NCBI RefSeq assembly: GCF_013122565.1
Contig: NZ_CP053258.1
Source: Escherichia coli
GTDB taxonomy: Bacteria > Pseudomonadota > Gammaproteobacteria > Enterobacterales > Enterobacteriaceae
Reading direction: 5' to 3' (one strand)
Length of the DNA: 64,000 nucleotides
Shown here: positions 47,650 through 48,073 of the stretch, in pieces
How the letters are laid out: each line of letters opens with the position of its first letter
Position numbering within the stretch: the first letter of the stretch is position 1
Position numbers and translations under genes: made by a program
Notes under the pieces: generated by a model
The model's database searches: none
The model's input: only the letters and a program-made list of their open reading frames with translations
Told to the model about the DNA's origin: nothing

Positions 47650-48073
47650 TCGTTTATTATGCCACAGAGAATCGGGAAATAACATCCCTTAACACTTGTT
47701 ATGAGATAATTCTGTAATCCTCTTTGCTTCCTGAGTAATAACTTCCTGAGTGAATATTTACCCTGAGCTTGATTCTACACATACTTATTATGAATGATAA
47801 AATTCATTCAATTAATAACACATGTATTAATTGCCGTTAAAACTAAAAACAGCATCAATAATCAACGCGATATAATAAACCTGCCTTACATATCAACTGC
47901 GCCAGAGGTAGGATTGAAAATGCTCTCCTGATTTTCTAATTCATTTTCTGGATAAATAAATAATTTATTTTTATCACTATTATTTATGTAATCATCCTGT
48001 CAGGGAGAGGGATCTCAATTATCAATGCTTAATTACGTCATCATTTTGATGACATGAAACCGGAGCATTTTGC

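Follow-up and report, generated by a model that had tools for sequence, protein, structure and literature searches.

The AT-rich spacer between glmZ and aslA of Escherichia coli: probably two unrelated control regions placed back to back

The window studied here is a 64-kb stretch (64,000 nucleotides) of the Escherichia coli contig NZ_CP053258.1. Positions 47650-48073 of this window are a 424-bp spacer that runs from the 5' end of the small RNA gene glmZ to the ATG of aslA, as an earlier sequence-only reading of this DNA had recognized. The small RNA gene lies on the minus strand (47443-47649) and matches the Rfam family GlmZ_SraJ (RF00083) over its full length with 218 bits. Its 5' end is the G at 47649, which aligns to the start of K-12 glmZ at 3986432, and a terminator scan places its terminator hairpin at 47448-47477. 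On the plus strand, aslA (48074-49729) is an open reading frame of 551 amino acids that encodes a sulfatase (Pfam PF00884, Sulfatase; E=1.5e-71) and is annotated under this name in E. coli genomes. Beyond it, on the minus strand, are aslB (49897-51162, from the K-12 annotation) and the tRNA-Pro gene proM (51279-51355, from tRNA scans). The other flank carries hemX (44388-45605) and hemY (45608-46804), both on the plus strand, and an accessory open reading frame of 199 codons (46845-47444, plus strand). The last of these is located between hemY and the glmZ terminator, such that its stop codon abuts the glmZ 3' end. It is annotated as a hypothetical protein, has a GC content of about 0.43-0.47, is carried by 693 of 5,425 matching E. 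coli genomes, and has no match in Pfam, NCBIfam, or PADLOC.

We conclude that the spacer is an ordinary, already studied intergenic region of E. coli, and that it is essentially already known. Its counterpart in K-12 MG1655 (3986008-3986431) has the same length and is 98.6% identical. There is no difference from about -110 to +47 of glmZ (numbered from the glmZ start), so that the proximal 110 bp and the -10 and -35 elements are shared, and six substitutions are found further upstream. K-12 also differs from the window in lacking the 199-codon open reading frame between hemY and the glmZ terminator. The spacer is single copy and was found in 5,407 of 5,426 complete E. coli genomes (coverage of 80% or more required), with identities of 93 to 98.6%. 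For longer segments that include accessory genes (46800-48200 and 27300-28700), the best identity to any E. coli genome is only 96.4 to 96.6%, compared to 98.6% for the spacer; the lineage of the window seems to be poorly represented among complete genomes, or the window is mosaic. Independent laboratories use the spacer as a neutral integration site, which fits the absence of an essential element there under laboratory conditions.

What sets the spacer apart is its composition rather than its length. The GC content is 0.32 (68% A+T), compared to 0.524 for the window, as the sequence-only reading had noted in calling it strongly AT-rich. This value falls at the 0.75th percentile of all 423-bp segments, and the composition boundaries are sharp. 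The longest run of A and T only in the window (23 bp, 47952-47974) lies within the string (47952-47988) that had been quoted as an example of phased A/T tracts. The spacer had also been described as unusually long. It is indeed the longest divergent spacer of the window, but only mildly so, as the remaining ones measure 395, 364, and 354 bp (GC, 0.46-0.47). Elsewhere in the 64 kb, a single stretch is comparably AT-rich (about 27.4-28.5 kb). That stretch lies between rarD and corA, around a gene for a hypothetical protein, reaches a minimum GC of 0.28, contains a 22-bp run of A and T only (27943-27964), and is complete in only 1,430 of 5,426 E. coli genomes.

The proposed phasing of the A/T tracts did not hold up, because the Fourier power of AA/TT dinucleotides at 10 to 11.25 bp in the spacer is equaled by 71% of dinucleotide-preserving shuffles (p=0.71). 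A curvature prediction, which had been suggested as a check, gave an ordinary profile (mean, 10.1 for the spacer versus 8.7±4.9 for the window) in a wedge model with Bolshoy/Trifonov parameters, controlled with synthetic phased A6 only. The sole curvature peak above the 99th percentile coincides with the start codon of aslA. Consensus scans for GlrR, sigma-54, IHF, H-NS, CRP, Fis, Lrp, Fur, FNR, ArcA, OmpR, and PhoP yielded nothing that beat dinucleotide shuffles. For GlrR (QseF), there are no TGTC-N10-GACA sites with at most two mismatches in 47600-48110 (3.1 expected by chance) and none with at most one mismatch in the 320 bp upstream of glmZ. The best match to the sigma-54 consensus TGGCAC-N5-TTGCW between -34 and -4 of glmZ has six mismatches. 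The IHF consensus WATCAANNNNTTR has four matches with at most one mismatch, compared to 1.7 expected, and none is perfect. The best match to the high-affinity H-NS motif TCGATAAATT in the spacer has two mismatches, which is at chance level.

Of the nucleoid-protein and regulator sites that had been envisaged in the spacer, those for GlrR and sigma-54 are thus missing, and H-NS is the plausible part. The A+T content exceeds the level typical of H-NS-bound regions (above about 65% over hundreds of bp), and an H-NS site from genomic SELEX, i.e., binding in vitro, is marked in the aslA/glmZ spacer by Shimada et al. 2014 (PMC3946193). The same study reports that the RpoD holoenzyme binds the spacer in vitro, and its authors argue that H-NS within a divergent spacer can affect both promoters. 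The spacer resembles the H-NS targets found by SELEX (Shimada et al. 2011/2014), which are AT-rich promoters of poorly expressed genes, in its 68% A+T and its SELEX listing. It differs from the H-NS-bound class in having no predicted curvature, phased A-tracts, or high-affinity motif, and in that its flanking genes have normal GC. We consider it plausible that H-NS, whose binding here is known in vitro, probably keeps aslA low or silent under laboratory conditions. Outside the spacer, a weak FNR ChIP-seq peak inside glmZ (U00096.2 position 3984609, about 47495 in the window), labeled 5' of glmZ/hemY, appears in Table S5 of Myers et al. 2013 (PMC3688515). This peak was called by one of four algorithms, has a poor motif score, and is probably an unspecific signal on a highly transcribed small RNA gene.

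The glmZ side of the spacer can be read with confidence. The core promoter (-1 to -40; 47650-47689, minus strand), read from the sequence, is identical to that of K-12. Its -10 element is the CATAAT (47656-47661, positions -12 to -7) that had already been singled out, and a TG at 47663-47664 (-15/-14) extends it to TGgCATAAT, which is invariant in five Escherichia lineages. The -35 element ATGTTA (47680-47685) agrees with the consensus at three of six positions and is separated from the -10 by 18 bp. With a TG-extended -10 element and a -35 element both present, the promoter belongs to the sigma-70 extended -10 class. Göpel et al. 2011 (NAR 39:1294; PMC3045617) described E. coli glmZ as having one constitutive sigma-70 promoter. 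In their experiments with K-12, GlrR did not bind the fragment from -424 to +32 in electrophoretic mobility shift assays, deletion of glrR or rpoN left glmZ'-lacZ unaffected, 5' deletions down to -40 were neutral, mutation of the -35 element drastically lowered expression, and mutation of the -10 element abolished it. As the promoter of the window is identical, these experiments apply directly. The failure of the sequence-only reading to find a convincing sigma-54 element for glmZ was therefore correct, and it is already explained by the published state of K-12 glmZ. Generic sigma-70 and position-weight-matrix scans return many AT-driven matches and give the real glmZ promoter a score of only 4.2, and for this reason scores alone were not used. 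The pair TTGAGA-17-GATGAT given by Shimada et al. was rejected as a glmZ promoter, as it lies 340 bp away from the mapped start.

The absence of a sigma-54 promoter can be placed in an evolutionary context. A scan of one genome per species with a glmZ pattern gave 120 loci for comparison. In about 100 species, we found TGGCAC-N5-(T)TGCA (no more than two mismatches) together with two to three GlrR sites near -150, -213, and -245. This sigma-54 form spans Yersinia, Serratia, Proteus, Photorhabdus, Salmonella, Enterobacter, and most Citrobacter. In eight sequences (the window, four other Escherichia lineages, Kluyvera, Pseudocitrobacter, and Superficieibacter), aslA lies upstream of glmZ, and at all eight the GlrR sites are absent and the -24 element is broken. 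In Salmonella, Enterobacter, and Citrobacter, about 300 bp separate the end of the tRNA operon argX-hisR-leuT-proM from glmZ downstream of it, and this proM-glmZ interval is the GlrR/sigma-54 region. In the window, proM and glmZ are separated by a block of about 3.6 kb that consists of aslB, aslA, and the spacer. In junction alignments to Salmonella, Enterobacter, and Citrobacter, homology is confined to the proM terminator with about 55 additional bp and to -17 to -2 of glmZ (GTGCAATAAT elsewhere and GTGGCATAAT in the window), with faint matches at the -35 region. The presence of this block in place of the upstream activating region explains why the spacer has no sigma-54 element. Compared to the sigma-54/GlrR(QseF)/IHF-dependent promoters of glmZ and glmY in Yersinia and Salmonella and of glmY in E. 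coli, glmZ of the window keeps the -12/-10 composite and the start site, but no -24 element is present, nor are the three TGTC-N10-GACA sites or the proM-glmZ interval of about 300 bp. The surviving -12/-10 composite now acts as the extended -10 sigma-70 promoter of glmZ.

The block has some features of a tRNA-linked island, as it adjoins the 3' end of a tRNA gene and is absent from this position in relatives, but its composition is not atypical and it is not bounded by repeats. Both aslA and aslB are host-like (GC of 0.51-0.53 and GC3 of 0.56-0.58, as in hemX and hemY), and no direct repeat of 10 nt or more was found between the junctions. Therefore, the replacement is old. We infer its direction (insertion or loss) from how widely the sigma-54 form is distributed. 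Sigma-54 control of glmZ has also been lost elsewhere. Five lineages of the Citrobacter werkmanii/youngae group, two of Pluralibacter, and one Superficieibacter sp. (L092) have no aslA upstream of glmZ and have lost the GlrR sites, and most of them also have no -24 element. In C. youngae, the surrounding DNA is still homologous, and the -24 element was lost through point mutations (TGGCAC to CCGCAT). Thus, such control has been lost several times. Superficieibacter electus (L007), which has aslA upstream and no GlrR sites, retains a -24-like TGGTGC-N5-GTGTA within -40 to -1 of glmZ, and this promoter looks like an intermediate stage in the decay of a sigma-54 promoter.

Conservation within Escherichia divides the spacer into three parts. 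Across five lineages, 61% of the spacer columns are invariant, compared to 33% at 4-fold degenerate sites of aslA, and the pattern is blocky: about 70 bp next to glmZ are conserved, the following 125 bp or so are near neutral, and about 230 bp toward aslA are conserved again. Conservation is high in the glmZ-proximal segment (47650-47719), of which the outer block (47680-47719, -31 to -70 of glmZ; 70-85% invariant columns) is dispensable for glmZ'-lacZ. The AT-rich middle (47719-47845; 15-55% invariant columns) evolves at about the neutral rate and contains indels. Toward aslA, blocks with 80 to 95% invariant columns occur at 47846-47865, 47876-47895, 47906-47935, 47956-47975, and 48006-48073, and this pattern suggests that purifying selection acts on the roughly 230 bp adjoining aslA. 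The spacers next to aslA in the four genera are 402 to 496 bp long, with GC of 0.30 to 0.34 at every locus, whereas the Escherichia spacer shares only 40 to 45% identity with those of Kluyvera, Pseudocitrobacter, and Superficieibacter.

Despite this turnover, one motif recurs. A candidate aslA promoter on the plus strand (47884-47914) consists of the -35 element CTTACA (47884-47889), an 18-bp spacer, and the -10 element TAGGAT (47909-47914). The general form yTTACA-N18-TA(G/A)(G/T)AT is found in eight of eight aslA-adjacent spacers from four genera, 101 to 159 nt before the ATG. The hexamers are conserved, and the intervening sequence varies at fixed length. Shuffles give a chance match of 0.6 to 1.6% per spacer, a figure that is generous because the motif was defined after inspection of the sequences. 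Its occurrence in three independent genera nonetheless makes chance an unlikely explanation. Based on this comparison, aslA is most likely transcribed from the weak sigma-70 promoter CTTACA-18-TAGGAT, and the conserved motif therefore predicts a start at about 47920-47922 (about 3986159-3986161 on the minus strand of K-12) and a leader of about 152 nt. Just upstream, the block 47846-47883 (AAAAACAGCATCAATAATCAACGCGATATAATAAACC; plus strand) is 70 to 90% invariant in Escherichia, and its sequence (TAAAAACAGCATCAATAATCAA...) is common to Pseudocitrobacter when the two are anchored on the promoter motif; it is a possible UP element or activator site. Two other candidates were rejected. The best-consensus 'aslA' promoter of Shimada et al., TTAACA-18-TGTAAT (47689-47718), has a -10 that is not conserved, and a perfect TATAAT at 47870-47875 lacks a usable -35 and is not conserved beyond Escherichia. 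A Term-seq study (bioRxiv 10.1101/2020.07.18.207399, supplement) places an RNA 3' end inside aslA (K-12 position 3984899, minus strand; about 49182 in the window). Therefore, at least one of the tested conditions allows some transcription of aslA.

The putative aslA leader (47921-48073, plus strand), which includes the 23-bp A/T-only run and a Shine-Dalgarno sequence GGAG (48062-48065), is marked by inverted repeats and by blocks that are 80 to 95% invariant. The repeats are nested (47913-47928/48004-48019 and 47953-47964/47979-47990), and their arms are the most conserved blocks. A further hairpin, GTCATCA-TTT-TGATGAC (48039-48055), is contained in a helix in which AAUGCUU base-pairs with the Shine-Dalgarno region. 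In E. albertii, this palindrome, 19 to 35 nt before the ATG, reads GACATCA-ATT-TGATGTC, a symmetric compensatory double change. RNAalifold on five close sequences predicts 48 pairs with 96.7% of cells paired; 35 of these pairs never vary and three show compensatory changes. Three compensatory pairs were reached in 20 of 500 shuffles and the observed covariation score in 1 of 500. Folding energies beat those of shuffles only slightly, with z-scores from -0.7 for the whole leader to -2.2 for the 3' hairpin.

We consider it probable that the spacer combines two unrelated, back-to-back control regions, one for glmZ and one for aslA, rather than forming one shared region. In this explanation, glmZ is transcribed leftward from its constitutive extended -10 sigma-70 promoter with a weak -35, as published for K-12, and needs only the nearest 40 bp. 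The rest of the spacer would belong to aslA, with the predicted weak promoter at 47884-47914 and the leader of about 150 nt, as the comparison among genera suggests, and its AT-rich DNA is a substrate of H-NS, which probably holds aslA low or silent. The ancestral enterobacterial glmZ promoter would have been sigma-54 dependent, with three GlrR sites within the interval of about 300 bp from proM to glmZ. The aslB-aslA-spacer block now stands in that place in Escherichia, Kluyvera, Pseudocitrobacter, and Superficieibacter, and only the -12/-10 part of the former composite promoter survives.

The sequence-only reading had instead proposed a single long divergent control region, in which nucleoid-protein or regulator sites would control glmZ and aslA jointly. 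The AT-richness of a spacer between divergent genes, the H-NS SELEX site with its potential effect on both promoters (PMC3946193), and the conserved block at -31 to -70 of glmZ are all consistent with this idea. However, removal of all DNA upstream of -40 leaves glmZ'-lacZ activity unchanged, the promoter is constitutive (PMC3045617), the middle of the spacer is about neutral, and neither phasing nor curvature was found. As glmZ needs only -40 to +1 and conservation splits the spacer in three, joint control is improbable. A degenerate but functional sigma-54/GlrR (QseF) enhancer hidden in the spacer would follow the rule in most Enterobacterales, and Superficieibacter retains a -24-like TGGTGC. 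Given the lack of GlrR sites with at most two mismatches, the six mismatches of the best sigma-54 match, and the negative mobility shift assay of the whole spacer and negative glrR and rpoN mutants (PMC3045617), we regard such an enhancer as extremely unlikely, and it is refuted for K-12. Functionless mutational drift of noncoding DNA could account for the AT-richness where the sequence evolves at about the rate of 4-fold sites (47719-47845), and it agrees with the tolerance of laboratory strains to insertions in the spacer. As an explanation of the AT-richness, it is improbable, because 61% of columns are invariant versus 33% of neutral sites, blocks reach 80 to 95%, the promoter motif is conserved, and four genera retain the length and GC although the sequence has turned over.

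Two further proposals concern additional elements. An unannotated small gene, encoding a small protein or a small RNA, might be suspected from a 45-codon open reading frame (47794-47931) and from several promoter-like hexamer pairs on both strands. The reading frame was rejected as a candidate, as the four other Escherichia lineages have lost its start codon and it lies in the least conserved part of the spacer. An Rfam scan of 46500-49000 found GlmZ only, published Term-seq tables contain no RNA 3' ends inside the spacer, and the K-12 RefSeq record annotates nothing there; such a gene is very unlikely. The nested inverted repeats could represent a cis-regulatory RNA leader or a pair of operators, which would be an added layer compatible with the explanation by two separate regions. 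The coincidence of the arms with the most conserved blocks, the three compensatory pairs (including the change from T-A to A-T in the E. albertii hairpin), and the 3' hairpin that folds better than shuffles point in this direction. On the other hand, the 35 invariant pairs are uninformative, the alignment comprises only five close sequences, the leader as a whole folds no better than shuffles and has no Rfam match, no shared fold was seen in the aslA-proximal region of Kluyvera, Pseudocitrobacter, and Superficieibacter, and the Term-seq tables report no premature 3' ends in the spacer. We therefore think a structured element of this kind doubtful. With similar reserve, one may speculate that the roughly 150-nt leader or paired operator is an undescribed, Escherichia-specific element that switches on a cryptic sulfatase in response to a host-related signal, and that the aslB-aslA block could have physically removed GlrR/sigma-54 control.

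The glmZ side is a solved case, and the importance of the present analysis beyond tidying is small. To what was known, it adds a conservation map, a candidate promoter for aslA, and a connection between the aslB-aslA block and the loss of GlrR/sigma-54 control. For integration into the spacer as a 'neutral' site, positions at about 47720-47840 are the safest choice. The gene aslA is a reported invasion factor of meningitis E. coli. A candidate promoter common to four genera, together with a putative leader and a map of the constrained parts of the spacer, may aid its study. Loss of GlrR/sigma-54 control of glmZ coincides with the presence of the aslB-aslA block next to tRNA-Pro.
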